Shown here piece by piece: positions 4,101 to 24,467 of a stretch of 64,000 nt of DNA. Location of the stretch: IMG/VR virus record IMGVR_UViG_3300025949_000023, positions 8,044-72,043 of that record. One strand, 5' to 3'. The DNA is from a virus. The first letter of the stretch is position 1; the number at the start of each line of letters is the position of its first letter. A program made the translations under genes and the position numbers. A model generated the notes under the pieces. The model saw only the letters and a list, made by a program, of their open reading frames with translations. It did no database searches and had not been told where the DNA came from.

Positions 4101-7100
4101 CTAATCAGGATTTTTGGGCTTGTTTACGTGTACGCCTGTTCCAAGCATATTCATAATCATCATTGTCCAATCGTTTTCACCCTGCGCCCCTGTAAGTAAA
4201 TTCTGAATAGGTATAGGTGTCATGCCACGAGCCTGAGAGCCAATGAATGAAGGCATAGTTGCCCAAAAGTTCCCCTGCTGCCCGCCATAGTTCCACTTAG
4301 AGAATTGACCGGTAAGTTTACCGCCTTTTTGTTCCCCAGGTATATGGTATATTCCTTTTTTATTATGGCCGGCTTTTTTATAAACGCCCTTATCATCCAT
4401 ACCTAACAGTTCATCTAATGTTGTCCAGCTTTTACCTTGCCAGTCTTTCCCCGTTCCCATTTCAACTGCCGCTTTGGTTAAAAATGCTGTTTTAGCTGAT
4501 AAAAATTTAACTGGGTCCTCTACTGCTTTTATTGGGTCTGAGTATGCTCCAAATATACTGAAATATGCCTTTTTACCTTTGTCTCCACCCGCCCAATGGT
4601 ATAAAGGAGAAATATCTACCATAAGCCATCTTAAATCTCCATACTCCCACGCTTCCTTATACCTGCGAGTAAAGGCCTGTTCCCAGTCCTCTCCATCTTG
4701 TTCATCCATAAATGATAGTGCTGCATTGGTAAAAGCAGTTATCATAGCACCCCTCAAAATAACACGCGCCCATGCTTTTCTGTACAATGTACCTTCTTCT
4801 CCTAAATCGAAAGCCTTTTTAGCAAATCGAAGGTTAGAAAAAGTCCAGTCAGTAGCCAAAAAAATCAATGATGAAATATGCCTAACTGTTGGGTCGCGCA
4901 TAATATTCGGTATGCTTTTATTGGTAAACGGTATTTTGGTTTCCCTTATCCTATCCCAATTAATACCTCCATACTGGTCATTAATTAATGATGCCACACG
5001 CTGCGCAACTTCATTTGGATTTGCTTCTGGGTTTTTTCTTAACTCATGCTTGTATAAATTAACAGCCTCAAAGGCCTTTAAACCTGCTCCGTAAGTCTCA
5101 AACAGCCTTTTGTGCATAGCTTCGTTCAAAGCCTTCATTTTATCTTTCGATACCTTGGTAAATGCGGTTTTATCCATCTGCTTGTCCAGCCAACTTTGAT
5201 GGCTGCTAATGCCTTCTTCAAAATCTGCCCTACGCCCAATAGTAAGCCCACCGCGTATTAGTTTTATTAACTCCGGAGATTGTTCTTCAATAAGTTTTAT
5301 ACCTCCGTCGCGGGCAGTCAATGGATTTATATGAGGGCCGCCTTTTTCTCCTTTTCCAACCAAAAGATGGGCTAAAGAGAAGGCTCTGTTGTGATAAAAT
5401 GAAAAAGATAAAATGGAGTGCTTTACATCCCTGTTAAATTTTGTCAGATTTTTAAGCCGTTCTTTAAGTATAGATGGTTGCGTAATTTGGTTTAAACTTC
5501 TGGCTATCTTTTTAGGGGCATATACACTTCTCTTTTCCATAACAGTGCCATTTGGGGAAATCAAAACATTTTTGTCACGTCCCAGCACTTGTATTTCATC
5601 GGGAGTATAGTCCTCTAACTTTTTATTATAAACCCATTTTTTAAATCCGTAAGATTTTATTTCTTCATATTCCGGCAGCTTACTGGTACTAAATAGCGGC
5701 TCCATTATTGGTTTCCCATCGAAGTCAGTTTCTCCGGTTTCATATTTAATACTTAGCCCATGGTTTAATAACTTTCTGGCCTCAATAACATTTCCTATTT
5801 CCTGCATTAAAATACCCAAGTTATTGGTAGCGCCCTGAATAGCCAGTTTATAACCTTTAGAGTACCCCTCAATTATTGTATCAAGAGTACGTTCAATAGT
5901 GTGCCTGGTATTTGTTTTAAACCGGCTCCATTGCTCCGTGGCCGGTTTGTCACCAAAGTCCCATGCGCGTGCCACGTAATTATCAATAACATCCCTTATT
6001 ATCTCGCTGTTTTTAGCCAGCAAGCCTATCTGCTGGTATTGCGCTTTAATATCCTCAGCAATCTGTTTTTGCTCCGGTGTAAGGTTTTGGGACAAATCCA
6101 CCAACTTCTGCTGGTCAGGCGTAAGCTTATCATAGTACCGCTGAAGGTGTTCTGGGTTTCTCTGTAAATCAAGATACAAGTGTATCGCCCGGTCTACGTT
6201 ATTGGCTTTTTCCGTTCTGCCTTTCCCTTCGGGAACAGTAGCCCTTATTTGATTTTGCAAGTTTCTTACTGTTTGCTGGGAACGAAACCTCAGCACTTCC
6301 TTATTCCCCAAATATTCATCTTCTGTCTTGTAATATTCTTTCTCGGCTTTTTCAAGACTATCAAATCTTTGTTTTTTAGTAAATGGATTGGCCTGCGCAT
6401 CTCCAAGTATAGCCCTCGCTACACCCTCACTCATGTTTTGTGCCTTTAGGTAAGACATGGCTTGTGCATCTGTTGCCCCATCCATAACGTATTGTGCAGC
6501 TTTTTCCCTGGCCTTATCATTAAGTCCAGTATTTTCACGCACTACCATTTCAGCCAAGTCCTGTTCATCTTGGTCTAATCCCTGTTTTTTAAGGTCAGCT
6601 ACTGCCATCCTAATGGCATTAGTAATGTCAACTCCGGCCATTACAGAAGCGTGTATTACATCAATAAACCCGTTCCATATTTGTGGGGGGAAGGGAAGGG
6701 AGTAAAGGCTATCTTCTTTTATTTTTAATTTAAGGATGGCATCAGAAATTCTTTGACGTGTATTAGCATGCGTTTTCTCGTCTATTTGTGTTTGAGCAAA
6801 CTCTTTATCTGTTTCGTTTATATCAGGAAACATTTCAACATTTGCCTGCTGGAGTTCCATTGAGGCGCCTTGTTCTGGCAGGCTGTCCCTGTACTCCCCC
6901 ATAGCTTTCTTAACAAGTTCCTCTGTACGCCCCGCAGAAGCGATTTTAAGGTCTTTTTCCGGCACTTCACTCAGCATTGAGTAATCAGTACCCAAACGTT
7001 TGTTGACGCTGTTTAAAGCCTCATTAGGGTGCGAATAGCCCATATTCATAGCCCTGTCGAAATCAATCTTTGTCTGCTCAGGTGTTATGCGTACATCATT

Positions 7101-7184
7101 TTTTAGTGCATGGTCTAAAAAAGAAGAAACACCCTTTAGGGGGGTGCCATCAATAGTAAACGTACAATCTTTAAACTGTATCAT
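4101..7184 (-). CDS. Large internal virion (ejection/cargo) protein
   Basis: 1027 aa, helical; C-terminal region resembles large polyvalent/ejection proteins (INDQYGGINW, TGKDWQGK); single Cys at residue 7. Confidence 0.65.
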   Translation of the reverse strand: MIQFKDCTFTIDGTPLKGVSSFLDHALKNDVRITPEQTKIDFDRAMNMGYSHPNEALNSVNKRLGTDYSMLSEVPEKDLKIASAGRTEELVKKAMGEYRDSLPEQGASMELQQANVEMFPDINETDKEFAQTQIDEKTHANTRQRISDAILKLKIKEDSLYSLPFPPQIWNGFIDVIHASVMAGVDITNAIRMAVADLKKQGLDQDEQDLAEMVVRENTGLNDKAREKAAQYVMDGATDAQAMSYLKAQNMSEGVARAILGDAQANPFTKKQRFDSLEKAEKEYYKTEDEYLGNKEVLRFRSQQTVRNLQNQIRATVPEGKGRTEKANNVDRAIHLYLDLQRNPEHLQRYYDKLTPDQQKLVDLSQNLTPEQKQIAEDIKAQYQQIGLLAKNSEIIRDVIDNYVARAWDFGDKPATEQWSRFKTNTRHTIERTLDTIIEGYSKGYKLAIQGATNNLGILMQEIGNVIEARKLLNHGLSIKYETGETDFDGKPIMEPLFSTSKLPEYEEIKSYGFKKWVYNKKLEDYTPDEIQVLGRDKNVLISPNGTVMEKRSVYAPKKIARSLNQITQPSILKERLKNLTKFNRDVKHSILSFSFYHNRAFSLAHLLVGKGEKGGPHINPLTARDGGIKLIEEQSPELIKLIRGGLTIGRRADFEEGISSHQSWLDKQMDKTAFTKVSKDKMKALNEAMHKRLFETYGAGLKAFEAVNLYKHELRKNPEANPNEVAQRVASLINDQYGGINWDRIRETKIPFTNKSIPNIMRDPTVRHISSLIFLATDWTFSNLRFAKKAFDLGEEGTLYRKAWARVILRGAMITAFTNAALSFMDEQDGEDWEQAFTRRYKEAWEYGDLRWLMVDISPLYHWAGGDKGKKAYFSIFGAYSDPIKAVEDPVKFLSAKTAFLTKAAVEMGTGKDWQGKSWTTLDELLGMDDKGVYKKAGHNKKGIYHIPGEQKGGKLTGQFSKWNYGGQQGNFWATMPSFIGSQARGMTPIPIQNLLTGAQGENDWTMMIMNMLGTGVHVNKPKNPD

Positions 7185-8450
7185 TTAGAAAGTGTTTATG
7201 CCAAGCTCTTTAAGGCGCTTAACTTTTTTGAAAATATTGTCTAAAGTACCACAATTACAAACAACGCAGTCTCCCTTGATGGTTTCTGCTATTTTGTTGG
7301 CATCGTCCATGGCATCCTGCATTGTGTCGCCTAAACCTATACATGAGCCAATTTCTGCCATCTCAATGCCGCATGGTATAAAGTGCGGCACCCCGTCCTT
7401 GTACATCAAGTTTTTAATCTTTACCCTGTCTTTGTACTTAGTGGGGAAGTATATGGCCTGGCTTTCAGTGAGTGCCCACTCCGATTTTATTATTACCTGG
7501 GCGCCAAACTTAGCAGTGGGCTTTAAATCAGGCACCATGCCGTTTGCCATTTCCCATACCGCCTGTGGAAAGTTGCTGTATATTTCAAGTTGCAGGTCAC
7601 CCGGTGGTTGCGGCATACGTGTGGTGGGGTCAATAAAATACCCTTTCTTCCCGTTCCACCTTACTTCATTTGAGAAAAAGCACTTGTAACCTGCGCCGGC
7701 AAAAATGCCTGAAAGTTTTTTGTTTATATCTTTTAATACCTCGGGCAGCTCGTCATACCGTACAATCTTTCCCAAATAACCGGCATCCTTATCTTCAATA
7801 CCGGTCATTGCAATATCCGGGTAAAGGCCGTTAATGGAAAATCCATCGTAGCCAATTTCCTCAGCTGGGTCAACAGGGTCAACGGCAACAAACGTGGCCT
7901 GTTCGTCAAAAGCACCCAGCGTATGCTTCATTTCTGTTAGCCGGGATGCAGACAAAAGTTTATCATGATAGAGAAACGTTTCGCCGTTCCCGCGTATAAC
8001 ACTGGTTTTTATCCATTTTTCCTTCTCATTTTTGAGAAACTCGTTTAGTTTGCTAAAACCATTCAATACTTTATAACCAGGTACAGGCAATCTTAAATCA
8101 TCCAGCATTTCCATAAACTCGTCCCTATTTATCTCCATGGTTTCGCCCATGCGTGGGGCGAATACTGCTTTACCAAACTTGGTAACAAATAAGTCTGCCA
8201 GTGGCCCTTGGTAAATATCTACTATACAAACAAGGTCAACCTCCTCAATTACCTGCGCCCAATGGTCTACCCGCTCAATATCTGGCACATCCATCCCTAT
8301 GGCAAAACTATTCCAACGCGGAAACGCGGCTTGCCAAAGCGTATTGTAATAAACTTTTTTGCAGTCGCGTGCCATACGCTGTGCAAAGGATACTTCATTT
8401 CCGTACCCAATTACAATACAGGTTACTTCTTTTATAGGTTTGAGTGCCAT
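7185..8450 (-). CDS. PurD/GARS-like ATP-grasp ligase of unknown substrate
   Basis: 421 aa. CIVIGYGNEVSFAQRM, VFAP..GETMEINR, LPVPGY, WIKTSVIRGNG and YFIDPTTRMPQP align by eye with the PurD motifs VLVIGSGGREHAL, IFGP, IPTA, VIKADGLAAGKG and VIEFNCRFGDP. Confidence 0.75.
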   Translation of the reverse strand: MALKPIKEVTCIVIGYGNEVSFAQRMARDCKKVYYNTLWQAAFPRWNSFAIGMDVPDIERVDHWAQVIEEVDLVCIVDIYQGPLADLFVTKFGKAVFAPRMGETMEINRDEFMEMLDDLRLPVPGYKVLNGFSKLNEFLKNEKEKWIKTSVIRGNGETFLYHDKLLSASRLTEMKHTLGAFDEQATFVAVDPVDPAEEIGYDGFSINGLYPDIAMTGIEDKDAGYLGKIVRYDELPEVLKDINKKLSGIFAGAGYKCFFSNEVRWNGKKGYFIDPTTRMPQPPGDLQLEIYSNFPQAVWEMANGMVPDLKPTAKFGAQVIIKSEWALTESQAIYFPTKYKDRVKIKNLMYKDGVPHFIPCGIEMAEIGSCIGLGDTMQDAMDDANKIAETIKGDCVVCNCGTLDNIFKKVKRLKELGINTF

Positions 8451-8460
8451 TATAAGTTAT

Positions 8461-8847
8461 TTAGAGTTCCATTACAGTTCTATCGTACTCCGGCCAGGAT
8501 ATACCAGCGTAAGCGCACATCATCATTTCGATGGAAGTTGCGAAAGTATGCTCGGCTTTATAGGGGGCACCTTCACTAAACCCCGGCTCACTGTCTGCTG
8601 GTACAAGTCCCTGCTGCCTGCGCTTTTCGTAGTATAAGTCATAGTCAAGTATTTGCTGTTCAGTTATTCCCTTCCATTTGGTAAGGCGCTCCTCAATCAG
8701 TTCGTGGATGGCCACAAGTGTTTCGTACTTTTCATCACCCATTTCGCTTACGCGTATCTGCAGCACCCCCAAATCATCATAAAAATAATCGCCGCATGTT
8801 TCATAACGTTGACTATTGTGAGGTATGGTTTTAATGTGTATTTCCAT
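8461..8847 (-). CDS. Small HExxE/zincin-like metalloprotein (putative peptidase)
   Basis: 128 aa; beta hairpin followed by LVAIHELIE and downstream EHTFATSIE potential metal ligands. Confidence 0.5.
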   Translation of the reverse strand: MEIHIKTIPHNSQRYETCGDYFYDDLGVLQIRVSEMGDEKYETLVAIHELIEERLTKWKGITEQQILDYDLYYEKRRQQGLVPADSEPGFSEGAPYKAEHTFATSIEMMMCAYAGISWPEYDRTVMEL

Positions 8848-8848
8848 T

Positions 8849-9325
8849 TTACTTCATTGCAGATACGTAATTACCGGCCGCATCCGGTTTGTCAATGTTT
8901 GTACCGGCCTTTATAGATTGTACACGCTGGCTCACACTACCACCCTGTTTGGTAAAATAATCCTGCACAACATTAGGTGAAGCGTTTTTATAGATATAAT
9001 TCACGATTTCACCCTTATCATTCTTTATTACCACATCCATTTGGTTGTTTGACTTCCCCACCACCGCTATGTGGCCTCTCGCATTTTGACCTGGTATTAT
9101 CACATTATTAAACAGTGCGTAGTTTGACCGGTAAGTAATTTCCCCTTTATAATCCGTTTCGTGGTACCAGCCTTCTTTCCTTGCTGTTTCGGCCTGGTCC
9201 CCCCATGGTGTAAAGTCCTGCTCTTTTGGCGCCGGTGGTTTATTCATCATTTTGGATGCCTGTAAAAGAGCAACCATTTTTCCCGTTTTGGGACTATTAT
9301 TGTTGTTGGCACTACCTGCGGGCAT
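8849..9325 (-). CDS. Hypothetical virion-associated protein
   Basis: 158 aa, tightly packed in the ejection-protein operon, Cys-free. Confidence 0.5.
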   Translation of the reverse strand: MPAGSANNNNSPKTGKMVALLQASKMMNKPPAPKEQDFTPWGDQAETARKEGWYHETDYKGEITYRSNYALFNNVIIPGQNARGHIAVVGKSNNQMDVVIKNDKGEIVNYIYKNASPNVVQDYFTKQGGSVSQRVQSIKAGTNIDKPDAAGNYVSAMK

Positions 9326-9326
9326 A

Positions 9327-12300
9327 TTAATTACGTTTGAAAAGGTTACGTAAAGAAAACCTTTTTTTCGCAGTTGGGGGACAATCTACTTTAAGCCTGT
9401 CCTCTTTTTTAAGGTCGTCAATCAATTCGTCCACGTCCTTGCCATACCTCTCCACCAGTTGCTTGCGCTGCTCGTGGTATGGTTTTTCCTCCTCCGGTGC
9501 GGAGGCAATGTCCTTTTCTATCTGGCTGAGCTTGGCTTCTTTTTCGGCGGCTCGTGCATCTTGCTCAGTTTTAGTATTATCCTCTTTTTGTCCAAATCCG
9601 TTAGTCTCTGCGTGCTGTTTCCAGTACTCGTCGGTGAGTTGTTGTTCTGTTTCATAATCTTGTTCAGCAATAGATTGCTGCTCCGGTGTTAGTTGTGAAA
9701 ATTCTTTATCAAGTTCTTCGGGCGTATGTTCGCCAAACCAATCTTTAAAAGGTACATCATAGGACTGCGCTTGGTTACCGCGCCCACGGTTTACACTTAC
9801 ATGCTCGTTTTCCCACATACGGTCTATGTGCGCTTGTAAACGCTGCGCACGTTTGGTGTTTGTTTTACCGGCCCTTATGTCGGCAACAGCGCCTTCCCGC
9901 TCTTTCTGGCTCATGTCGTCCAGTGTGAGCCGGTAGTCAAAACTACTATCCTTGGAATCCTCCGCAAAGTGCAGGAATTGTTCGGTAAAATCTTTTTTGG
10001 AAATTTTGGATGTGCGCTCTTTAGAGGTGTCGCGTTTTGCTACCCCCCCCTCGATTTCGTGGGGTTGTTCTGGCTTAATTTCTTCAATAGGCCGTAATAC
10101 CGTCTCTTCCAAATGCTGCTGAATTGGTGTAGTTTCCTTCTCAACCATTTTCGCAGCTTTCTCAGGGCTGGCCACCACTTCTTTTAATTGCTTGTGCAGT
10201 TCTTCAATTTTCGCTTGTATAGGCTCGTGGAATACTTTATCCGTTTCGTGCTTAATTTTCTCCTGCTGTGCAATTTCATCCCATATACTTAATGCAGCGG
10301 TCTTTTGCTCGGGTGTGATGCCCTTTGGTAGTTTGCTCTCCTTTGCCCATGAATTAGCGATAAACTCATGCGCTTTGTTCAAAGCATCTAATGTTTTGTA
10401 ATCACCTCCAGCCAGCGCGTTTTTTCTGGCCTCCTCCAGTATGCTGGCATACAGTGCAGGGTTTTCATTAAAGTTGCGCAGTATTTCCATCCTCGCCCCT
10501 TTGGCCTCCGGCATTAACTTAGCCGCGGCGCTAATCATTCCACCCACCACCGTATTCATCATTACATCATGGGCAATGTTATTCGGGTCAAGTTGGTTGG
10601 TAGCCAGATGCGTGCCGAATAGTTTATTGCTACCGGCGTTAATTACAAAGCTGCTTGCTTCTTGGGCCAGGTTTTGAGCATTTAACAGTGCCACGCCTTT
10701 CACCCCCTGCTCGGTGGGCATCAGTTTCATAAAGTAATCAGTCAGTGATTTTTTCGTAAACCCGGTGGCCAGTAAATCTTCGGTAGTTATTCGGCCTACG
10801 GTTGCCTTGGCTAAATCCGAAGGCATCTGCATGGTGTGCATAAACAGCCCTATTAAGCCGCCTTTTATCCCGCCAATGGTTTGTGCCTGCAATTCACTCG
10901 CACCGGCTAATTTCGCATGCTGGTAGCCTTGGTTGTACGTTCCCAGCATAAAGTAGCCCAGCTCCGGCGCTTTGGCAAATTGCCCCATCAAAATTGCTGG
11001 TGCCATGTTACCCAGCATTTCACCGGCCTGCGCGTAGAAAGGTTTATATCCGGCTTCATTGAGTGCCGTTTGTGCAAAAGGTGTATCTGCAAAGCTGCCG
11101 CCATTGGAGAGGAATTTAGCGGTATAGTAGCGAGAATGTGAGCCAAACATACCGCCCACGCCCAATGCAACATCATCTACGCCACCTACCATACCCGTGT
11201 AAATACTTTTACCGAAGTCTTTTACTCCCCTGCCCAGTTCCTTGGCCTGCCCAACAGCACCCTCTACACCACCTTTCTTTGCCTGCTGCTCATTGGCATA
11301 CTTGCTTTCCTGTTCTGAAATCTGCGCTTGCTTGGCTTTCATCACATCAGGGAATAGCCCCGGCACCGCACCCAACAACTGCTCTCCTTTTTTCTGTGCC
11401 AGGTACAAATTCAATCCGTCCTGCCCTTCGCGGGTACCCAGCGGTTTTAAATCGTCACTTACCTGCTTTGAGGCAGAAATAAACGATTGCTGGTTAAACT
11501 GGTAGGCATTCCATAAATCGGGTAGTTCTTTGCTACCCGACTGTGTAACTGCGTTGGTAACATCCATTTTTATCTTGGCATACCGGCGAATGTCATCCTC
11601 CGTCATGCTGGCAGGGTCGTTCAACTTCTTTACCTCCAAAGAAAGCATTTCATCCATTTCGGGTATTACCCCTTTCATGGCATTCTCGCCTACCATTTTC
11701 ATCTTGGCGCTTATCGCCTGCTGTTCACTCTGGTATTTTGTTTTGAAAGCATTATAGTAGTTATACGATTGAACGGCCTGTAAAACATCCGTGGGTACAG
11801 TTTTTTCATTACCATAAGTATCAGCTATCGCTTGTTGAAGTATTTGTGATTTTCCAGTTTGAGAAGCAAGCATATTGCTTGGCATCTGTTCTGCAGATTT
11901 TTTTACAGCCTCCATTATATCGGGGTGCTGCATTAAAAACTTTGCCAGCGGCAGGTTATCTTTTAACAGCGCCTGTGTTTGCCATGGGTCGTTTTCTGTC
12001 TGCTTTACAAATTCATTTGCCTGCTCGTCTGTAATACTACTTGGCTGCTTTGATAAAGCACTTACCGTTACATCCGGCAGGTTGCCCACGTTAGCACCTT
12101 GGGCTGTTTTAAACGTCATGGAAGGGTTATACGCCTTGGGAACCATGTGTCCTTTATCATTCATGTCGAGGTAAACATATTCACCTGTCCACGTAGGATT
12201 GTCCATTTGCAGCCTTTTTTTCCATGCAAGGCTTTCAGTATTGAAAAGCTTATCTGTTTTTACAATAGTGCCAATGTACTGCTTGGTGTTCACTATATCG

Positions 12301-12803
12301 CTCCATGACTTTACACCTTGTATTTCCTTGTTGCGGGCTTCAATGTCTTTTACCTGGGCCTCGGATGGGTTTACCTTAATATTGTCCCCTGCAGGTAAGA
12401 GCGCCTCTATACCACCCTCTTTGGTGGGAATATCTACTTCTTCTTTTGGTAAATCAATTTTAGCCGGCAGGTCTGCCTTCATAATATCCGGTGGTGGTAT
12501 ATTCTCCGGTATCAGTGGCTTACGGGCTTGTGTAGTATGCATCGCCGTGGGTGCACTTATATTAAATGCTTCGCTTGCGGCATGCTGTTCTACTGGTAAT
12601 GATACAGAATTAACAAAGGCATCCGTTACACTTTTAGCTGCTTCAATGGTAAACTTACCGGCAGGAGTAGCGCTCTTTGGGTCTAAAAACTCCTTTTGAA
12701 AATCAGCCTTTGGACTTTTGAAAGTGCTGGCTTCCTGAATAGCTTTATAGTCAGCATATTGTTCGGGAATGACAGTGGTAGTATCAGGTGTATTGTCTGG
12801 CAT
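9327..12803 (-). CDS. Large internal virion (ejection) protein
   Basis: 1158 aa; A/Q/E/K-rich helical with Gly-rich hydrophobic central helices; single Cys 18 residues from the C-terminus. Confidence 0.65.
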   Translation of the reverse strand: MPDNTPDTTTVIPEQYADYKAIQEASTFKSPKADFQKEFLDPKSATPAGKFTIEAAKSVTDAFVNSVSLPVEQHAASEAFNISAPTAMHTTQARKPLIPENIPPPDIMKADLPAKIDLPKEEVDIPTKEGGIEALLPAGDNIKVNPSEAQVKDIEARNKEIQGVKSWSDIVNTKQYIGTIVKTDKLFNTESLAWKKRLQMDNPTWTGEYVYLDMNDKGHMVPKAYNPSMTFKTAQGANVGNLPDVTVSALSKQPSSITDEQANEFVKQTENDPWQTQALLKDNLPLAKFLMQHPDIMEAVKKSAEQMPSNMLASQTGKSQILQQAIADTYGNEKTVPTDVLQAVQSYNYYNAFKTKYQSEQQAISAKMKMVGENAMKGVIPEMDEMLSLEVKKLNDPASMTEDDIRRYAKIKMDVTNAVTQSGSKELPDLWNAYQFNQQSFISASKQVSDDLKPLGTREGQDGLNLYLAQKKGEQLLGAVPGLFPDVMKAKQAQISEQESKYANEQQAKKGGVEGAVGQAKELGRGVKDFGKSIYTGMVGGVDDVALGVGGMFGSHSRYYTAKFLSNGGSFADTPFAQTALNEAGYKPFYAQAGEMLGNMAPAILMGQFAKAPELGYFMLGTYNQGYQHAKLAGASELQAQTIGGIKGGLIGLFMHTMQMPSDLAKATVGRITTEDLLATGFTKKSLTDYFMKLMPTEQGVKGVALLNAQNLAQEASSFVINAGSNKLFGTHLATNQLDPNNIAHDVMMNTVVGGMISAAAKLMPEAKGARMEILRNFNENPALYASILEEARKNALAGGDYKTLDALNKAHEFIANSWAKESKLPKGITPEQKTAALSIWDEIAQQEKIKHETDKVFHEPIQAKIEELHKQLKEVVASPEKAAKMVEKETTPIQQHLEETVLRPIEEIKPEQPHEIEGGVAKRDTSKERTSKISKKDFTEQFLHFAEDSKDSSFDYRLTLDDMSQKEREGAVADIRAGKTNTKRAQRLQAHIDRMWENEHVSVNRGRGNQAQSYDVPFKDWFGEHTPEELDKEFSQLTPEQQSIAEQDYETEQQLTDEYWKQHAETNGFGQKEDNTKTEQDARAAEKEAKLSQIEKDIASAPEEEKPYHEQRKQLVERYGKDVDELIDDLKKEDRLKVDCPPTAKKRFSLRNLFKRN

Positions 12804-12811
12804 GATGCAAT

Positions 12812-14365
12812 TTAAGCACTCTGCGGGCTATTTACAAGCATTGCTAAGCCAGCAAGCGCGTTTCTCGGTGCAACCACATCATTAAATGATATTTCTCCAT
12901 CATCTGAAAGGTCTGCTTCGTAATCTTCATTTGCGGCCTTGCCGGTTAAAAATCCCTTGCTTAAATCTATTTTAAACAACTCCTGTTTAACGGGCTTGGT
13001 TTTATCCATGTCAACAGCAGCCTTACCAGTATTAGGGTCTTTTGCGACCTCCATCTTCTTGGTCTTACTATTAAATTCGTATTTATAGAAAACTGGCAAT
13101 ATGTCTCCATTTTGCTTTACACGAACTTCATCTGGATAAACTTTTTTATTTGTGGTAGGGTCAACAATTGCCATGGCGTTTCTAACCCTATTATCAATTT
13201 TCATGTTGTACTGAATTTCCGTTACGCCATCATGTGTATAAGGCCTTGGGTCGTTCATCGCATCAAGTTTTAAAACCTCAAAAAGTTTATTGCCCATTTC
13301 AAAGGCAACTGTTTTTTTCTTATCAGCCTTAGCATCATTAACTTTTATCTGTAATGAAGCGCCATAATCCTTTAGCCTCATGCCATATTCAAACCCAAGC
13401 TTTTTAAGTGCTTTTTCATTTTCAAATCGTTGCCCTTGTAAATATTCAGGGTTTGGCTTAAACTCTTTCTGCCCTAAGTTATAAGGTTTACTACCCTCAA
13501 TTATCATTTTGGCTGTATAAAGGCCGGTATAATCCATTGGTAGTTTCTGCCCATGGTTATTGGGGTCACTATCAATTATCTTTTGCGCTTCCTGAATGGT
13601 GCTTAATTTATCCTCGTCTTTTGTCTGCATCCACTCGTTCTGCGCGTTTTTGTTGTAATTACGGTTGCCCAAAGATTGGGCAGCTTTCATCGCTATTTCA
13701 CTTGTCGGGCGCATGTAAACAGCATTTTGGTTTACATCCCACCCCACTAATTGCTTCTTGTCATTATATACGGGTTTTTCACTTGGCACCACTTGCCTGT
13801 CACCCAGCACATCCTTTATTGCATCGCCCGTTCCTTTATATGTTTCAGGTGCATGCAGGTATGGCGCCAGCGTATTGAATCCTGTTGTACGTATCTGGTC
13901 AATTGTCAGCCCATCCTCTATTTTTGATGCCTGTGCCAGCTCAGGGAAGTCTTTAAAAGCGCCGGGATTGGTTGCGGCCATGTTCCACATCTTCGCTTTT
14001 TCTTCACTTTGCTTTGTGCTGGAATTTGCCAGGTTAAGGTTGCTATAATACGCATCATCCAATTTGCCTTGCCAGAAGGCCCTTTGTACGGGGTCTTTTA
14101 AAACTTTTGGGCTTTGCAGCATCAATCCAGCCATCCTGAAACTCTTTACCCCTTCCATGAATTTAGGAATATCCGCAGCACGCATTGTTTTCTGGGAATC
14201 CCCCAGCTGTAACTGCATTTTATTAAACTGGTCTTGAATATACTGCTTGTTGGTTAAGTCCCTGTGCTGTATTTGGGCAAGCGTGGTGTTAAATTGTTCC
14301 CAATGTAGTACGCCGGCCTCGCCCGTACCTGTCCCGCTTGATATGTTTGCGCCTGTTTGTGCCAT
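12812..14365 (-). CDS. Internal virion (ejection) protein
   Basis: 517 aa, Cys-free, second gene of the ejection cluster after the nozzle. Confidence 0.6.
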   Translation of the reverse strand: MAQTGANISSGTGTGEAGVLHWEQFNTTLAQIQHRDLTNKQYIQDQFNKMQLQLGDSQKTMRAADIPKFMEGVKSFRMAGLMLQSPKVLKDPVQRAFWQGKLDDAYYSNLNLANSSTKQSEEKAKMWNMAATNPGAFKDFPELAQASKIEDGLTIDQIRTTGFNTLAPYLHAPETYKGTGDAIKDVLGDRQVVPSEKPVYNDKKQLVGWDVNQNAVYMRPTSEIAMKAAQSLGNRNYNKNAQNEWMQTKDEDKLSTIQEAQKIIDSDPNNHGQKLPMDYTGLYTAKMIIEGSKPYNLGQKEFKPNPEYLQGQRFENEKALKKLGFEYGMRLKDYGASLQIKVNDAKADKKKTVAFEMGNKLFEVLKLDAMNDPRPYTHDGVTEIQYNMKIDNRVRNAMAIVDPTTNKKVYPDEVRVKQNGDILPVFYKYEFNSKTKKMEVAKDPNTGKAAVDMDKTKPVKQELFKIDLSKGFLTGKAANEDYEADLSDDGEISFNDVVAPRNALAGLAMLVNSPQSA

Positions 14366-15042
14366 TACTGTATTGGTTGGAAGCCTGAAAAACGACGTAA
14401 CCGTTGTGTATTTTGAAGATATGTAGCGTAGCTATCAGGAATTGTGTTCCCGTAAAGGTCAGGGTTTTCAACTGTAGGGTCATTTTTAGGAGTAAAGAAC
14501 CCTTCACTTGCCCCTTTAGCACCTGCGGAAGCAATCATATTAAGCCCTGTATTAAAGTTCTCGGTAGACGCACCTTTTAAAGCCTGTATAGCTGCGGCGT
14601 TTTCTTCGTACTTGGCTTTGCTGTTCCAATCCCACACCCTGTTTTGCCAGTCTCCTAAATTATTTTTCTGGTTGATTAGCTGGCCTTCTTTGGTAACCAT
14701 CAGCTGCGCATCCTGCGCGGTTAAATTTCCGGTTGCGTCCTGCTGCTGCTGTTGTATAGCGCCTATTGTTTCCATGCCCGCCCTGCGCTCCGTAGCGCTG
14801 CCCAAAGCTACTGCACCGGCACGCTGTATCTCTTTTTGTGCCTCTAACTTTACGGCAGCGGGTAAGCCGTATGTAGCCTGCTGCTCTGCAAGTGCTGTGG
14901 CATCTTTAATACCCTGCGGCACGCTTTCAATAGGCCGCTGGTTTGATTTTTCCAATGCCTTTGCCTTCTTCTTATCGGAAGCGCTTTTTATCAAGCTTAT
15001 GGCACCTAAAACTCCTGCGGTTACGAGGCCCCCGGCTGGCAT
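14365..15042 (-). CDS. Small ejection/DNA-pilot protein (P22 gp7/T7 gp14-like position)
   Basis: 225 aa; hydrophobic Gly/Ala N-terminus (GGLVTAGVLGAISLI) then A/Q-rich coiled coil. Confidence 0.65.
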   Translation of the reverse strand: MPAGGLVTAGVLGAISLIKSASDKKKAKALEKSNQRPIESVPQGIKDATALAEQQATYGLPAAVKLEAQKEIQRAGAVALGSATERRAGMETIGAIQQQQQDATGNLTAQDAQLMVTKEGQLINQKNNLGDWQNRVWDWNSKAKYEENAAAIQALKGASTENFNTGLNMIASAGAKGASEGFFTPKNDPTVENPDLYGNTIPDSYATYLQNTQRLRRFSGFQPIQ

Positions 15043-15045
15043 AGA

Positions 15046-15477
15046 CTAAGATTTAGTTGTTAAAACTGTTATATTTTCAATCGTGGTAACCATCCCACAC
15101 TTCTTCAACCAATTAATCGCCCTGGTATTGTAACTGTATAAAAGGCAGTCAAATTTATCTCCCAGCGATTGTTTGATTGACTTCCAAAATTCATCTAAAT
15201 ATAGCGAATTTCTAAAATTTTTATTTAAACCGAAACTTATCAGCAATTCGGGCATATAAACATAGTAGCCTACCGGGTTGTAATTATCGTAAAAACCAAT
15301 GCACTTTGCGTCAGGGTAATTGTGTTTTATCTTGGCCATTACATTGTCGCATGCCTGCTGTGTACTGGTAACGTTCTCTCCTTTATCGTAGTAATTAAGC
15401 AGGTCGGTATCAAGTAAAAATGCAGCCTCTACGAAGGGCTGCATTTCTGAAATATCGTGTGTGCATGTAGTTATCAT
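15046..15477 (-). CDS. GNAT-fold acetyltransferase-like protein (podovirus post-nozzle position)
   Basis: 143 aa; PVGYY, ISFGLNKNFR and NTRAINWLKKCGM resemble GNAT motifs A/B. Confidence 0.6.
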   Translation of the reverse strand: MITTCTHDISEMQPFVEAAFLLDTDLLNYYDKGENVTSTQQACDNVMAKIKHNYPDAKCIGFYDNYNPVGYYVYMPELLISFGLNKNFRNSLYLDEFWKSIKQSLGDKFDCLLYSYNTRAINWLKKCGMVTTIENITVLTTKS

Positions 15478-18400
15478 CCGTTGCGTGGGCTAAATGCGTA
15501 ATTTAAATACAACCCGAAGATATAAATTAATTCGGGGTCTGCACGCTGCAAAATCAACTCCATCCATGTCCCTTTCAGGAAGTCTCCGTTAATAAGGCCT
15601 CCTTCGCTGTTTACATCCCGCCAGAAAGCGGCACTGTAAATACCTTCCCTGAAATCAAGATCTTCGTCCAGCAATGTACTTTGGTTGCCCAGCTCAGTTT
15701 GTATCTGCGTAGGCATTGGCGCTGTCCATATTTTCCCATATTGGGAATTGTAGTTTATTGCCCGGTATTCTTTTTTGGCGTTTGCCTGCGGGTTAAATAC
15801 TATATCTAATGAGGCTGGATAAAGTACACCATACGGTGTTATCTGGCCGTATTGTTCAATTACACCATACTGCGCTATCTCACCAGGTACGTAAATTTGA
15901 CCGTAGTTTGAAAAGAAGGTGTTATACTGGTTTTGATTCGTAAAGCTGTACAATACGCCTTTCTGCCACGCATACAGCACGTTTTCACCGCACTCAATCA
16001 TATCTGGTTGCCAATCCCTCCAGTTAGTAAATGCGTTCTCTGCTTCGTCCCATACAATAGTGTCTCCCTGTATATCATCGCCGCTTTGGAAAACAAATAT
16101 GCACTCCTTCTTTTTGTCCCTTTGGAAATAACAGCATCCCAGTATTTTGGCATAGCCGCCGTAATATCCTTGATGGTTATTTAAATACTGTGTAGCCAGT
16201 GGCCCTACAAATGTTTGTACTTTCCCTTCTTCGCTTATTGGTGTGTAACCATCCTGAGAAAGTCGTAACAAATACCCTTTTACCGGGTCTGGGTGATAAT
16301 CAACATACCCATCTGAAAACAGCCCGTCAGCCTGGTTGCCTATGCCAAAACTTCCGTCATAGTACTGGATGTTGTTTTGTGTAATTATCGTGTCGGAAAC
16401 TATCAGGTTTTTAGTCCCGTCATTGTTTACAATGAATTTTGCATACACCCCTATAACACCTGTACCGCGCTCATGGAAGATTCTGGCGTTTCGCTGCCGG
16501 GCAACCATCCGCATAACCTTACCCTTGCTGCGGTCAAATTCATCGTAGTCAAAAGGATAAAATATGCTTATACCGTTTACATTCGTTCCTTGCTGGTCAG
16601 GATGGCTAAACCTAAACCTTGTGGGATATTCCTGTTGTTTTACATCCGGCGCCACAACTGCAGGTTTCCCGTTGCTGCTGGTAACAATAGCGTACACATC
16701 GCTGAATGACGGCTCAATTACCGGTATCTGTATGTTTTCTATTATCTCCATTTTAAGCACATGCTGCCCGTATTGCACTGTAGTTGTGCCATCTATACCT
16801 GCGTCAACTTCAATATAAAACACTATACATCCCGCGGGCACTACTGCATCAACAATCAACTCGGTAAAATCCGCCTGGTCGCCGGAAGAAGCAAGAAACC
16901 TGTTTTTAGCCAGATAGTAGCTTGTATAGTTATTACTTGGGTTAATAACAACCACAAATATGCTCAGGTTTACGGCTTTGTCGGTTGTTGCGCCAGCCGT
17001 GTCAACTGTAAACCGCAAAGAAATGTCGCTCGCTGTTTTATTCTTAAATATGTAATCGGTGCTGCTGTAATCAACAAGGCCTGTTAATCCGGGGTCGGTG
17101 TTGTAATTCTGTGTTCCTACTTCGTACCGTGTATTGCTTACATTCCCACCCTGCGGCGTTGCGCTGGGGGTGGCGTATGTTTCGGCAATCTTATAATTAC
17201 CAATATCGTAGTAATAAATAAACCCTACCGGCACCGTTCTCCACCGGAAGAAGTTATCGCCATCGCTTATTGTGACGATAGCCGCCTGCGAAAGATTAGC
17301 TGTTTGTGTTTGGGTATTGCCCATGTGGTAGGCTTGTGCTGTACCTGAATTACCAATCCCAAACCATTTACCAAATTCAAAATAAGTATTGTTGTTTGTT
17401 TCGCCTTCTACAATATTTGACTGGTGGGCTTTTAAATTGTAAAGCAACACTTGGTAGTGCTGGTAATCTATAGTCCCGTCAAAAACAAAGACTCCAGGTG
17501 TAATATCGGCTGTAGGGTAGTTTATTTTTACGAAGTTGCCAGTCATTTGCTGTGTATTGATAACAGGGTTTACCTCCAAAGAAAGCACCTCGTAATCAAG
17601 ATTAAGCGTAGAAATGTCGTGTCCTACGCCGCTGGCATCCCATCTGGCATTAAACCTCACCCTGTCGCCGGGGGAGAAGTTGTACTGTACGACGCCCTCA
17701 CTGGCCTGTATAGTTTTATTATATTCTACAATATTGCTTACATCTATGTACGCATACTGTTTTTCAAGGTACACCTGGCTATACGCCTGCCGGGAAACCC
17801 AGTTAAGTATTTTATTGTATGAAAGCTGAGGCGTCCTTAAAACCTGGTAGCCGGTAGCCCATATTGGTGGCCGGTGTGAAATTAAGAGTGCAAGCTGGGC
17901 CACCCCCGCTGCATACGCGCCAAAGAACTGGGATGGCGTTTTGATAAAACACTGCGCTGTGGTTACTACTGTATTAGTGCGTCCTTTATCATCCCGGTAA
18001 TTAATGGCTATCCCATAGTTGCAGTTTGGTAAATAAGCAAAGAAAGATGTGTTTAAAATGCTATAATCTGCCGGTACGTAAGGCGCTGCATCCAAAGTGG
18101 TGTTTGCCCGGTACAAAACCAAACTGTTTGTGCCAAGACTTATGAATGTCCACCCCTGCGCAATACTGGCTACCTGCAGTTGTGTAAGCGCCGTAACCAC
18201 GGAAGCGTCACTGGCCGTAATACTAAACCCTACCTCCGCCTGGGCTGCGTTCTGTGCTTTTACGGTAAGTACGCTACCTGCCAGCACATCTAATAAGGAT
18301 GGATTATCGTTGCCGTCATTTGTACCGGTACCGGTTAAATATATCGTAACATACCCGGTGTACGGGTTTTGATACGCAAAAAACAGCAACCCATTTACTG

Positions 18401-19490
18401 TTGCATACTGGTTGTCTACCGGCGTAACCGTTGTAGTCATTAAAGGCATTGCCACCTGGTCATAGCCTTCCACGGTGTCTGCCACGGCCACCACATTCCC
18501 GTTTAAAACAGTGCTGCAATTATTCTGCTGGGGAATATATGTCTGGTCAATTACTGTCAGTGTAGGGTCAGCGGAAGGATATGTACTGTCATTGTAAAAA
18601 ACATACCGCCAAAAGCTGTTATCGGGGATACTCAGCTCAGATTTTACCAATGTGTCAACAAGCAGCCAATCGGAAGTTATGCCGTCTTTTGTTTGCTGCA
18701 TCCATATCTCCAGCTTTTTTACATCCACATCCCCTGTTGGGATGTATAACGCTATCCTGCCGTTTTTATTCGGGTTTTGGTTTATCACCATATCGCCGGG
18801 ATTGTACGGCAGCGGGCACTCGCTTATTGTTGAATACACGCATTTATCCAAAACATCAAAAACCTGCCGCGTCCTGAACTGAAACAGGGCATTACGCAGG
18901 TTGTTTGTGGCCAGGCCGGTAGCGTTCTCATACACGCATTTTATTGGTATAGGCGGTGGTTGTTTCGCAAGGTCTATGTAATTGCGCCTTATAGGGTTAT
19001 ACGTGTTGGCTAAATACAGGTTTATGGGTATACGGGTAATTCTTTTTAAACTGTCGGTGTAAACAAGAATATCGCCGTCAACAGGGTCGCCGTAGATTAT
19101 ATCAATGGAATTTATGGTAACAGTAAAAAGAAAGCCCAGCACATCACCGTCTGTGTTGATACCGTTCTGAATCAGGGTATCAATAGTTCCCAGCTTAGTG
19201 TTTAGAATATATATACCATCATTGCCGTTGGAGTTTTTATTCATCCAGAACATCCTGTATTTAACGGCATCATAGTGCCTGCCGATACAAAGATTGTCTC
19301 CTGCCGGAAGGCTAAAACCATACGCTGTAAATAAATTGATTGTTCCGGTGAGGTTCTGCGGGCGTTTGTTTCCAGCTGGCCCAAACCAGCTTAAATTCCT
19401 TGTACTTCGGCGTAGCATACCATTGCCTACGTTCTCCGGCGTATCGTCCAGGTTAACCATACCGGTAAATGGTACTTGTTCTATTGGCAT
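15474..19490 (-). CDS. Tail nozzle/stabilisation protein (crAss muzzle / P22 gp10-like)
   Basis: ~1338 aa, beta-rich. N-terminal FTGMVNLDDTPE and C-terminal FREGIYSA...GDFLKGTWM are typical of crAss-like stabilisation proteins. ATG 19490 preferred over 19538, which overlaps the upstream gene. Confidence 0.75.
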   Translation of the reverse strand: MPIEQVPFTGMVNLDDTPENVGNGMLRRSTRNLSWFGPAGNKRPQNLTGTINLFTAYGFSLPAGDNLCIGRHYDAVKYRMFWMNKNSNGNDGIYILNTKLGTIDTLIQNGINTDGDVLGFLFTVTINSIDIIYGDPVDGDILVYTDSLKRITRIPINLYLANTYNPIRRNYIDLAKQPPPIPIKCVYENATGLATNNLRNALFQFRTRQVFDVLDKCVYSTISECPLPYNPGDMVINQNPNKNGRIALYIPTGDVDVKKLEIWMQQTKDGITSDWLLVDTLVKSELSIPDNSFWRYVFYNDSTYPSADPTLTVIDQTYIPQQNNCSTVLNGNVVAVADTVEGYDQVAMPLMTTTVTPVDNQYATVNGLLFFAYQNPYTGYVTIYLTGTGTNDGNDNPSLLDVLAGSVLTVKAQNAAQAEVGFSITASDASVVTALTQLQVASIAQGWTFISLGTNSLVLYRANTTLDAAPYVPADYSILNTSFFAYLPNCNYGIAINYRDDKGRTNTVVTTAQCFIKTPSQFFGAYAAGVAQLALLISHRPPIWATGYQVLRTPQLSYNKILNWVSRQAYSQVYLEKQYAYIDVSNIVEYNKTIQASEGVVQYNFSPGDRVRFNARWDASGVGHDISTLNLDYEVLSLEVNPVINTQQMTGNFVKINYPTADITPGVFVFDGTIDYQHYQVLLYNLKAHQSNIVEGETNNNTYFEFGKWFGIGNSGTAQAYHMGNTQTQTANLSQAAIVTISDGDNFFRWRTVPVGFIYYYDIGNYKIAETYATPSATPQGGNVSNTRYEVGTQNYNTDPGLTGLVDYSSTDYIFKNKTASDISLRFTVDTAGATTDKAVNLSIFVVVINPSNNYTSYYLAKNRFLASSGDQADFTELIVDAVVPAGCIVFYIEVDAGIDGTTTVQYGQHVLKMEIIENIQIPVIEPSFSDVYAIVTSSNGKPAVVAPDVKQQEYPTRFRFSHPDQQGTNVNGISIFYPFDYDEFDRSKGKVMRMVARQRNARIFHERGTGVIGVYAKFIVNNDGTKNLIVSDTIITQNNIQYYDGSFGIGNQADGLFSDGYVDYHPDPVKGYLLRLSQDGYTPISEEGKVQTFVGPLATQYLNNHQGYYGGYAKILGCCYFQRDKKKECIFVFQSGDDIQGDTIVWDEAENAFTNWRDWQPDMIECGENVLYAWQKGVLYSFTNQNQYNTFFSNYGQIYVPGEIAQYGVIEQYGQITPYGVLYPASLDIVFNPQANAKKEYRAINYNSQYGKIWTAPMPTQIQTELGNQSTLLDEDLDFREGIYSAAFWRDVNSEGGLINGDFLKGTWMELILQRADPELIYIFGLYLNYAFSPRNG

Positions 19491-19492
19491 GT

Positions 19493-19708
19493 TTAGTTGA
19501 TTTGACTGAGCTCTGTTACTACCAGTTGCCCAAGCCAAATGTACCCCTTTCCTGTGTAATTACCCCCTGTGTTGTCGGTAGCGGTCAAATTGTACATCAC
19601 CCTGCTTTGACCGTTTTCTGTAAAAGAAGTGCCTAAATAATAATGCAGGCCTTTGCTCCCATTGGCAAGTACCTGCACATTTGAAGTATATAACTGGCCT
19701 TCTGGCAT
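19493..19708 (-). CDS. Small tail-associated protein
   Basis: 71 aa, tightly packed between ring and nozzle genes. Confidence 0.5.
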   Translation of the reverse strand: MPEGQLYTSNVQVLANGSKGLHYYLGTSFTENGQSRVMYNLTATDNTGGNYTGKGYIWLGQLVVTELSQIN

Positions 19709-21920: not shown

Positions 21921-23534
<1,614 letters not shown>

Positions 23535-23543
23535 TTATTGAAG

Positions 23544-24467
23544 CTATTTATCCGTAACCAGCAAAATCTCCCTTTCAAACAGCACAAGGTATTCTTCGCC
23601 GTCCACCACTACTTTAGCGCCTGCATTTTTACCGAAATGCGCGGTATCGCCGACTTTTGCCTCCATTGGTATTAATTCGCCTGTGCCGGTAGCGCGTTCG
23701 CCTGGACCTACCGCAATCACCTTGCCCTGCAGTACTTTAATATCCGCATTGCCTGGCACTACAAATCCGCCTGCTGATTGCGCAGGTGCTGTATCTGGTT
23801 TTACTAAAACCTTGTCTCTAAGTACTTTTTTCTTTGAACTCATATACATGCGTGTTAATCCGAATAACGGATGGTTTGTTAATCTTCTGCCTGCTTTTAT
23901 ATATGTACCAACCACGTCCTCGTTTGTAACAACCACCTGCCTGCGCACTTCATTATTCCACTGGTAAACAACTTCGTAGTCTGCATATTTGTAAACTATA
24001 ATCGTGTCGTTCCGGCAAATATCTTCAAAATCGCTGGCCACCACCTTCATTAAGTTGTCCTCGGTTTTCCGGCTGGCATCCGTTACGCCTTCAACCATTG
24101 GCACTTCTATTCGTTCGCAAATAAGATTTTTATTCAGCGGGCGCAGGTCGCCATCTTCGTCAACGAAAGAAAGAATCCACCTATCATAAGGCAAAACACT
24201 GGTACGTATGCCGTTTTCTGTTTTTACCAAAAACTCCTGGTCGAAGATAAGGTTGTGGTGTACTACTACGTATTTGCCTATTAAATGCTCAGGAACGCCA
24301 GTGCCTACCTGTTTAACCAATCCTACTACTGGCTGCGTCTCCCTGTTATTTGTGTCATACAAGTGCCTGTTGGGCACAATATGAAACGTTACGCCATTTT
24401 CAAACGTATAAGATTGTTTTTGCTCAAGTGAGCTTTCAATAAGTATCGTGCCGCGTAGTGGTGTCAT
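23544..24467 (-). CDS. groES: Co-chaperonin with three tandem GroES-like domains
   Basis: 307 aa. The C-terminal ~100 aa are canonical (LRDKVLVKP...SAGGFVVP...GKVIAVGPG...KVGD...DGEEYLVLFEREIL). Two upstream divergent repeats begin TPLRGTILIE and LRPLNKNLICE. Confidence 0.85.
   Translation of the reverse strand: MTPLRGTILIESSLEQKQSYTFENGVTFHIVPNRHLYDTNNRETQPVVGLVKQVGTGVPEHLIGKYVVVHHNLIFDQEFLVKTENGIRTSVLPYDRWILSFVDEDGDLRPLNKNLICERIEVPMVEGVTDASRKTEDNLMKVVASDFEDICRNDTIIVYKYADYEVVYQWNNEVRRQVVVTNEDVVGTYIKAGRRLTNHPLFGLTRMYMSSKKKVLRDKVLVKPDTAPAQSAGGFVVPGNADIKVLQGKVIAVGPGERATGTGELIPMEAKVGDTAHFGKNAGAKVVVDGEEYLVLFEREILLVTDK

Follow-up and report, generated by a model that had tools for sequence, protein, structure and literature searches.

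The 64,000-base stretch analysed here (the window) spans bases 8044-72043 of IMGVR_UViG_3300025949_000023, a 72,043-base IMG/VR virus record that is rated complete and represents an uncultured phage. On its minus strand it encodes a block of large, cysteine-poor proteins, two of which carry their only cysteine at facing ends, one near the C-terminus of the upstream protein and one near the N-terminus of the downstream protein. These two cysteines are the subject of this report. The phage is a crAss-like podophage, as placed by three markers: a muzzle gene, a large terminase gene and the virion protein PHROGs that adjoin both. The muzzle gene (15474-19538) matches phrog_14478 (E 1.5e-31) and PF25729 crAss_MUZ_C (E 7e-6, 26.8 bits, cut-off 27), and the crAss-type large terminase (33687-35900) matches phrog_6681 (E 3.5e-64). 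The host probably belongs to the Bacteroidota, since the closest relative is a contig in a Bacteroidetes metagenome-assembled genome (MAG). This 72.5-kb contig (L055) and a 61-kb IMG/VR contig (L005, the same phage as L054) have the same gene order in the block as the window over the stretch compared.

The minus-strand open reading frames (ORFs) that follow the muzzle gene encode proteins of 143, 225, 517, 1158, 158, 128, 421, 1027, 177 and 194 aa with 5, 0, 0, 1, 0, 2, 9, 1, 0 and 1 cysteines, respectively, and then a fibre-like, open-ended ORF with four. The putative cargo ORFs lie directly downstream of the muzzle gene on the same strand, and in crAss001 the same position holds cargo proteins seen in virions by mass spectrometry (PMC10172136). 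This position and the depletion of cysteine suggest that the window proteins, too, are cargo or ejection proteins. The genes are as follows.

15474..19538, minus strand: crAss-type muzzle protein gene, marking the start of the cargo block; 12 Cys
14365..15042, minus strand: 225-aa putative cargo protein; 0 Cys, as in the L055 protein at the same position (229 aa)
12812..14365, minus strand: 517-aa putative cargo protein; 0 Cys, as in the L055 (511 aa) and L005 (596 aa) homologues
9327..12803, minus strand: 1158-aa cysteine-poor putative cargo protein, the upstream partner; one Cys, residue 1141
8849..9325, minus strand: 158-aa protein, possibly cargo; 0 Cys, as in the L055 protein at the same position (138 aa)
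8461..8847, minus strand: 128-aa protein, probably not cargo; 2 Cys; conserved between the partner genes
7185..8450, minus strand: 421-aa ATP-grasp-like enzyme, probably not cargo; 9 Cys; conserved between the partner genes
4101..7184, minus strand: 1027-aa cysteine-poor putative cargo protein, the downstream partner; one Cys, residue 7

The first-pass annotation had counted the cysteines of five of these ORFs, and the counts hold: none in the 225-, 517- and 158-aa proteins, one in the 1158-aa protein (residue 1141) and one in the 1027-aa protein (residue 7). Together the five contain 2 cysteines in 3085 aa (0.065%), compared with 233 in 16063 aa (1.45%) in the 65 other non-overlapping window ORFs of at least 80 aa each; the binomial probability of two or fewer is ~3e-17. 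Cysteine in the window cargo proteins is far below the rest of the proteome, and the depletion is kept in homologues. Of 17 homologues of the 1027-aa protein, 14 are free of cysteine, as are 39 of the 74 relatives of the 1158-aa protein. Cysteine is likewise missing from frames of 659-4141 aa in 34 of 50 related loci.

The eight ORFs downstream of the muzzle gene match no PHROG, and the cargo ORFs and their isolated terminal modules, described below, return nothing from Pfam or PHROGs (for the window's own proteins, no Pfam family at E<=0.01). With tblastn, neither large protein found a counterpart among 50,697 phage records, and sequence searches of solved structures gave nothing below E 0.4. 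Neither gp49 nor gp47 of crAss001 is detectably homologous to the two large window proteins (hhalign probability <=1%; gp45 and gp46 were not compared directly). The DFDxD polymerase motif was not found in any large cargo ORF in a scan of all window frames of at least 300 aa, which excludes the 8043 genome bases outside the window. The sole DFDGD-like match in long window frames lies at position 35723, within the large terminase ORF, and the crAss virion RNA polymerase seems to be absent from the window.

Terminal cysteines of the two large proteins

The two cysteines lie in short terminal modules.

9330..9506, minus strand: C-terminal module of the 1158-aa protein, residues 1100-1158 AKKRFSLRNLFKRN, with two predicted helices, the stretch ..RLKVDC-PP and a basic tail
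7095..7184, minus strand: N-terminal module of the 1027-aa protein, residues 1-30 MIQFKDCTFTIDGTPLKGVSSFLDHALKND, with the Cys7 codon TGT at 7164-7166 (MIQFKDCTF)

Cys1141 is encoded by TGT at 9381-9383 (..LKVDCPP..) and is followed by 17 residues to the chain end. The conserved module comprises ~45 residues with a consensus of roughly RK.LV.KYG.D..E.I..LK.E.RLKV.CPP..KR..SLRNL.K. and has no Pfam match at the curated cut-off. The proposal that its cysteine would be conserved in homologues was borne out. Among 18 diverse representatives with the module, 17 carry cysteine at the same place, in 16 of them as the only cysteine of the protein, and C1141 and P1142 are invariant in 11/11 aligned members (19-71% identity), where only 20 columns are invariant. 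Furthermore, a profile of four family members searched against 1.84e9 representatives gave 74 matches whose 108,326 residues contain 42 cysteines; 26 of the 42 fall within the last 25 residues (~3% expected) and four within the first 10.

The eighteenth representative is the L055 protein, which is interrupted in the MAG contig by an in-frame TAG (L055:7802-7804) located 19 codons before the cysteine. The 33 codons downstream of this TAG are conserved and end exactly at the start of the next gene. Logan contigs from two public lake-water runs, which may include the source sample of the MAG, have G for T at L055 position 7802. The resulting GAG encodes Glu, the residue type of the relatives, and restores a frame of 1131 aa with the cysteine module. 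We read the TAG as a variant or error and not as a sign that the module is dispensable. Recoding of TAG was considered and dismissed, given that TAG closes 8 of the 58 long frames of the contig, that no tRNA gene is present there and that the other runs read GAG.

The AlphaFold2 model of the 1158-aa protein is poor, with a mean predicted local distance difference test score (pLDDT) of 53, too poor for a fold search. Helices 1107-1120 and 1124-1133 reach pLDDT ~80, and residues 1137-1158, which hold the cysteine, stay below 50.

Other members of the family vary in architecture. Three proteins of another subfamily (P0074, P0089 and P0093) share an N-terminal domain with a cysteine at residue 6-8, and P0089 also ends in cysteine; such terminal cysteines would fit a link between chains. 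Some relatives carry an insert with the motif RHxxTD.N..G (profile positions ~890-1030), which we take to be histidine-phosphatase-like. A profile scan of 401 Bacteroidota genomes matched 128, with only cellular matches that cover ~60-170 profile positions at ~845-1038 (loci L061-L079); these are taken to be ordinary cellular phosphatases hitting the RHxxTD insert. Weak leads come from the Atlas neighbours of the 1158-aa protein, which include LPD22 and LPD14 clusters.

The N-terminal cysteine of the 1027-aa protein is embedded in a motif, [FY][KQ]DC.F..DG, that occurs in 4/5 proteins sharing the N-terminal region, with the cysteine at residue 7-9. Conservation of this cysteine, proposed together with that of the other, thus extends to four of the five relatives in the near clade. 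In the window the ATG comes immediately after a stop codon, which rules out an N-terminus longer than annotated. The C-terminal ~700 aa of the protein correspond to a domain that is widespread in very large phage proteins. AlphaFold2 predicts the 1027-aa protein with a mean pLDDT of 72 and places a short hairpin (strands 8-11 and 14-17) and a helix (19-29) at its N-terminus at pLDDT 42-55; Foldseek of the model against the PDB returned nothing at E<=0.001. A homologue, P0009, carries LPD23 (PF18838) according to a precomputed annotation, and the window protein itself has neither this nor any other Pfam family at E<=0.01. A word-index search retrieved no further N-terminal relatives.

The two cysteines occur together in 3/3 genomes where both genes are readable. 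In the window phage, L055 and L005, the small cargo homologues have no cysteine, the 1158-aa homologue has exactly one, within the module, and the 1027-aa homologue exactly one, at residue 7-8. Neither terminal motif appears in a plausible coding context in the other related loci. When viral contigs were scanned with single proteins, with alignments and with two degenerate DNA motifs, the L005 phage was the only one recovered (L056 and L057 are chance matches); a metagenome scan returned the same phage again, and a scan of genome contigs gave L055. The observation in the first-pass annotation that both cysteines form a DC dipeptide holds for the window, where each follows Asp, and for the N-terminal motif, where DC is kept in all four relatives with the module, but the relatives of the C-terminal module read KC, EC, NC or RC.

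Gene junctions in other crAss-like phages

The arrangement of the two cysteines was surveyed in 13 crAss-like phages. These were taken from 136 records matching crAss001 gp50, chosen from 30 listed rows by spread of identity and taxon before their cysteines were seen, and gene coordinates follow the deposited annotations. The chain order in crAss001 and cr116_1, whose genes lie on both strands, was taken from homology to phi14:2. The junctions examined are those between consecutive proteins of the virion RNA-polymerase module. At 16 of these 18, a cysteine in the upstream protein is at most 8 residues away from the C-terminus (0-8) and a cysteine in the downstream protein occupies residue 3-6; the number rises to 17 if the start of one cr110_1 gene is re-read. 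The outer ends of the chains are bare: none of the 13 first proteins has an N-terminal cysteine and none of the 13 last proteins has a C-terminal one. The individual arrangements are as follows.

phi14:2: g067 (1797 aa), whose only Cys is the last residue; g066 (2180 aa, the solved RNA polymerase), Cys 3 and 2179 only; g065 (1421 aa), Cys 3 only
crAss001: gp47 (2341 aa), Cys 2339 only; gp50 (2412 aa), Cys 5, 1334 and 2404; gp49 (1349 aa), Cys 5 only
cr111_1: upstream protein, Cys 1636 of 1638; middle protein, Cys 5, Cys 2281 of 2283 and three internal Cys; downstream protein, Cys 3 only
Fpv2, first two proteins fused: fused protein of 4401 aa, single Cys 4400; next protein, Cys 3
cr55_1, first two fused: fused protein of 4551 aa, Cys 4026 and 4548 only; next protein, Cys 5
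cr109_1, cr60_1, cr118_1, cr7_1 and cr272_1, first two fused: Cys 0-3 residues from the end; next protein, Cys 3-4
p-crAssphage, last two fused: gp45, Cys 1956 of 1957; gp44 (4070 aa), MSC start and no Cys near the C-terminus
cr110_1, last two fused as in p-crAssphage: Cys at residue 17 of the annotated start, which is residue 3 of an in-frame ATG (MSC start)

Among 165 other ORFs of the same loci, used as a control, cysteine falls in residues 2-7 in 6 and in the last 9 residues in 16. A rough binomial estimate for the junction pattern from the cysteine frequency of the window is ~1e-31, a value that is overstated because the genomes share ancestry. Where subunits are fused, as in Fpv2 and cr55_1, the cysteine pair is missing at the fusion site. 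Because the window proteins lack detectable homology to gp49 and gp47 and the window offers no DFDxD candidate, the junction rule is not tied to one protein family.

In cr116_1 (L092), which has three junctions, gp051 and gp049 both end in cysteine and a 215-aa gene lies between them, so that an intron or a mis-called start is possible. The replication modules of p-crAssphage (L085 gp39 and gp37) and cr111_1 (L087 gp042) contain genes annotated as thioredoxin or thioredoxin-domain proteins, which could bear on disulfides in the cargo; no phage thioredoxin was found among ten cysteine-rich window ORFs.

Proposed linkage of the chains and its alternatives

A cysteine pair that occupies the facing ends of otherwise cysteine-free proteins, and that is absent when these proteins are fused, suggests that the two residues act together where the chains meet. 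A disulfide would be the simplest chemistry for this. We regard a tail-to-head disulfide between the chains as the best reading of the paired cysteines, with a probability of roughly 0.55; from the sequences we infer that the proteins are located in the virion, that the bond forms, that it serves ordered ejection and that the host reduces it.

The mechanism can be outlined as follows. The block at 4101-15042 would encode proteins that are packed into the virion and ejected into the host, and these avoid cysteine, as other ejected phage proteins do. Once the virion has left the reducing cytoplasm and become oxidised, Cys1141, on the flexible tail that ends the 1158-aa protein, and Cys7 of the 1027-aa protein would most likely form one disulfide. 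The joined proteins would then pass the portal and tail as a single thread, N-terminus first, which would fix their order and a 1:1 ratio, and the bond would be cut in the reducing cytoplasm of the host. Short overhangs beyond the bond (6 + 17 residues in the window, 2-5 + 0-8 in the Crassvirales) would suit a narrow channel. The same device seems to stitch together the split subunits of the Crassvirales virion RNA-polymerase module, with one pair per gene junction. Tail-to-head pairing fits the N-to-C ejection proposed for the crAss001 cargo protein gp45, a model based on partial densities of one cargo protein, and crAss001 virions do have disulfides in the tail (PMC10172136).

The first-pass annotation had envisaged that the two termini pair through a disulfide or a complemented beta-domain. 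Tail-to-head pairing gains support from the conservation of both cysteines, their co-occurrence in three of three genomes and the matching arrangement at 16 of 18 junctions with bare outer ends. The complemented beta-domain fared less well, since AlphaFold2 puts both cysteines in low-confidence termini; in these models, both cysteines probably lie in flexible ends. A complex prediction that paired the C-terminal 74 residues of the 1158-aa protein with the N-terminal 60 of the 1027-aa protein, using an alignment for each, scored 0.28 against a mark of 0.32.

Several observations weigh against the disulfide reading. L005 and P0022 carry 230-330 further cysteine-free residues after the C-terminal module, so that the cysteine is not near the chain end. 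There it would be internal unless the extension is cleaved off. A fifth relative of the 1027-aa protein, P0004, has a different, cysteine-free N-terminus, although it is ~78% identical over the aligned N-terminal stretch to one of the four motif-bearing relatives. For much of the 1158-aa family, the sequences lack a surrounding genome from which a partner could be read. At the junctions, gp049 of cr116_1 has no N-terminal cysteine, cr110_1 departs from the pattern as annotated, and gp47 of p-crAssphage (L085, BK010471; 857 aa) has its only cysteine at the penultimate position with no N-terminal cysteine on the next proteins. The counts also overstate the number of independent events, as the 13 genomes are related and the window phage, L055 and L005 are each other's closest relatives. 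Finally, gut phages inhabit a low-oxygen habitat, in which formation of a disulfide is not assured.

The strongest rivals are independent anchoring to structural proteins and a conserved module whose cysteine has another role. According to the former, each terminal cysteine separately anchors its cargo protein to a structural protein such as the portal, the capsid interior, a ring or the muzzle, as a packaging anchor or release latch, and the cargo proteins are not linked to each other. Suitable partners exist, with 12 cysteines in the muzzle protein of the window and 10 in that of crAss001, and structural disulfides do occur in crAss001 virions, between tail hub and ring proteins (PMC10172136). 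Moreover, a C-terminal cysteine with no known partner is common in the 1158-aa family, and the cysteine of p-crAssphage gp47 is unpaired. Anchoring leaves unexplained why N-terminal cysteines appear only on the downstream protein and C-terminal ones only on the upstream protein, why 16 of 18 junctions match and why 13 of 13 outer ends are bare, and we consider it unlikely.

The other strong rival holds that the terminal cysteines have no joint function and are leftovers, or belong to another signal for packaging or processing, and are tolerated only at chain ends. In favour of this rival, the shared ancestry of the compared genomes inflates the junction counts, the whole C-terminal module is conserved and could act otherwise, for example in DNA binding by its basic tail, and L005 and P0022 carry the module internally. 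Leftovers are hard to reconcile with a cysteine that stays invariant while its neighbours vary (19-29% overall identity), with the same pattern in proteins without detectable homology, and with the purging of cysteine otherwise from up to 4401 residues, and with the lack of the pair where genes are fused. This reading, too, appears improbable to us.

The paired cysteines might instead link the chains through a shared metal ion or other thiol chemistry, in the virion or in a complex refolded in the host. The same pairing pattern supports this, and a link that works in the host could not be a disulfide, as the cytoplasm there is reducing. Stable binding of a metal generally takes three or four ligands, and each end offers one cysteine, with no conserved histidine or second cysteine beside it in the alignments; we find this quite unlikely. 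A peptide bond between the chains, made by intein-like trans-splicing or ligation, is very improbable: cysteine is the usual nucleophile of such reactions and an intein-like insert occurs in the L005 ATP-grasp gene, but the overhangs given above are far too short for the halves of a split intein. That g065, g066 and g067 of phi14:2 are annotated as found by tandem mass spectrometry is, by itself, no proof of separate chains. A lipobox was considered as well and rejected, since no signal-like hydrophobic stretch precedes the cysteine in the window.

Depletion of cysteine as such is already known from N4-like phages, where cysteine makes up 0.00075% of gp71 homologues and 0.865% of proteomes, ascribed to passage through the oxidising periplasm, and it has been described for N4 gp50 and the Schitoviridae ejection operon (PMC11445570). 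The N4-like ejection proteins (N4 gp50-52, DEV gp71-73) are likewise large, packed in the virion and ejected before the DNA, and the window block is equally depleted, but their few cysteines are reported as unconserved or as annotation errors (PMC11445570), whereas each of the window partners keeps one invariant terminal cysteine. The Crassvirales cargo and polymerase module (crAss001 gp45-gp50, phi14:2 g065-g067) resembles the window in its position after the muzzle gene, its large cysteine-poor proteins and its facing terminal cysteines. It differs in that the window proteins have no detectable homology to it and no DFDxD, an N-terminal cysteine at residue 7-8 and not 3-6, and a C-terminal cysteine 17 and not 0-8 residues from the end. 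The polyvalent proteins (Pfam LPD; Iyer et al. 2017, PMC5512222) are giant modular proteins, too, for which packaging and injection are predicted, and P0009 has LPD23; in contrast, the window proteins match no Pfam family, and the accessible text of PMC5512222 mentions neither cysteine nor disulfide.

Terminal placement of the two cysteines appears not to have been reported previously. We found no description of terminal cysteines or cargo disulfides in crAss-like phages in the literature searched, which did not extend to most subscription journals and supplements. In its accessible text, PMC10172136 does not contain 'cysteine' and uses 'disulfide', in the 12 of 20 places viewed, only for tail hub and ring proteins, and neither word occurs in the phi14:2 preprint (10.1101/2020.03.07.982082) or in the Crassvirales review PMC10136315. 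A parallel for the chemistry comes from an animal virus.

The adenovirus peptide pVIc is a short basic C-terminal peptide that forms, through its one cysteine, an inter-chain disulfide with the protease inside the virion. It activates the protease after cleavage and does not chain cargo, and no homology is implied.

Genes between the partners and implications

The partner genes are separated by those at 7185-9325, and the first-pass annotation had taken this as a sign that these were inserted between formerly adjacent or fused partners. This was not supported: the 128-aa and 421-aa genes lie at the same place in all three phages, and no fused or adjacent form was found. Where the 1027-aa protein has long single-chain relatives, their N-terminal halves do not resemble the 1158-aa protein, and the 1027-type domain is present in 0 of the 74 relatives of the 1158-aa protein. 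P0038 has short stretches like both large proteins, too weak to be called a fusion. Former adjacency or fusion is plausible by analogy only, as the analogous Crassvirales partners are usually adjacent and in some lineages fused (10.1101/2020.03.07.982082). Partners need not adjoin, since the chain genes of crAss001 are not adjacent.

The 128-aa and ATP-grasp proteins are cysteine-rich in all three phages, and the 128-aa protein, 64% identical in L005, has a HELIEE stretch. Both are probably cytoplasmic, within a block of otherwise cysteine-free cargo. The 421-aa protein has no Pfam match. Its Atlas neighbours by structure and features are viral clusters labelled 'biotin carboxylase family', GARS_A and T4_Y16D (template modelling scores 0.79-0.96), which are leads only, and the protein looks like a viral ATP-grasp enzyme resembling the PurD and T4 Y16D clusters. 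The 158-aa protein gave no tblastn match in the related loci compared, a set without L055.

The L005 phage differs from the window at several points of the block. Its ATP-grasp homologue (L005:7642-9969) has 775 aa, and tblastn splits it around a ~315-aa insert that starts with cysteine, ends in ..HN before a cysteine, contains an endonuclease-like stretch and sits at a conserved site, ..GYFID.T / RMPQPPGD... By these sequence features it looks like an intein. The extension of the 1158-aa homologue (L005:6297-7232) takes the place of the separate 158-aa gene and contains HEYSH, an HExxH motif, with a weak match to Peptidase_M48 (E 0.025, below the cut-off). Between the 517-aa and 1158-aa homologues, ~1.16 kb lack a long open frame (L005:1834-2993); the same genes are 9 bases apart in the window.

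Elsewhere, the window encodes a GroEL (21921-23516, Cpn60, E 7e-53) and a 307-aa protein (23544-24467) that starts with a 210-residue extension and ends in ~90 residues of GroES (Cpn10, E 1e-20). A 202-aa protein in the plus-strand early or replication region (31712-32320) matches RVT_3 (E 1.7e-10) and, below threshold, RNase H (25.4 bits, cut-off 25.8).

How podophages order and meter the proteins that they eject before their DNA is an open question that the junction rule addresses. It is conceivable, at slightly below even odds in our estimate, that crAss-like phages in general stitch split virion cargo, in the Crassvirales the subunits of the injected RNA polymerase, into a disulfide-linked pseudo-polyprotein with a fixed ratio, which leaves as one N-to-C chain and is cut to working subunits by the reducing cytoplasm of the host, and that the window phage does the same with unrelated, non-polymerase cargo, so that the arrangement would be a general design rule. 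If this reading is refuted, the conserved terminal cysteines still mark a functional site. If it is true, it would account for the equivalence of a polymerase module in separate pieces and one with fused subunits, sequence alone would predict which cargo proteins travel together in uncultured phages, and a redox-triggered release step would be added to the infection by these phages, which include the most abundant viruses of the human gut.

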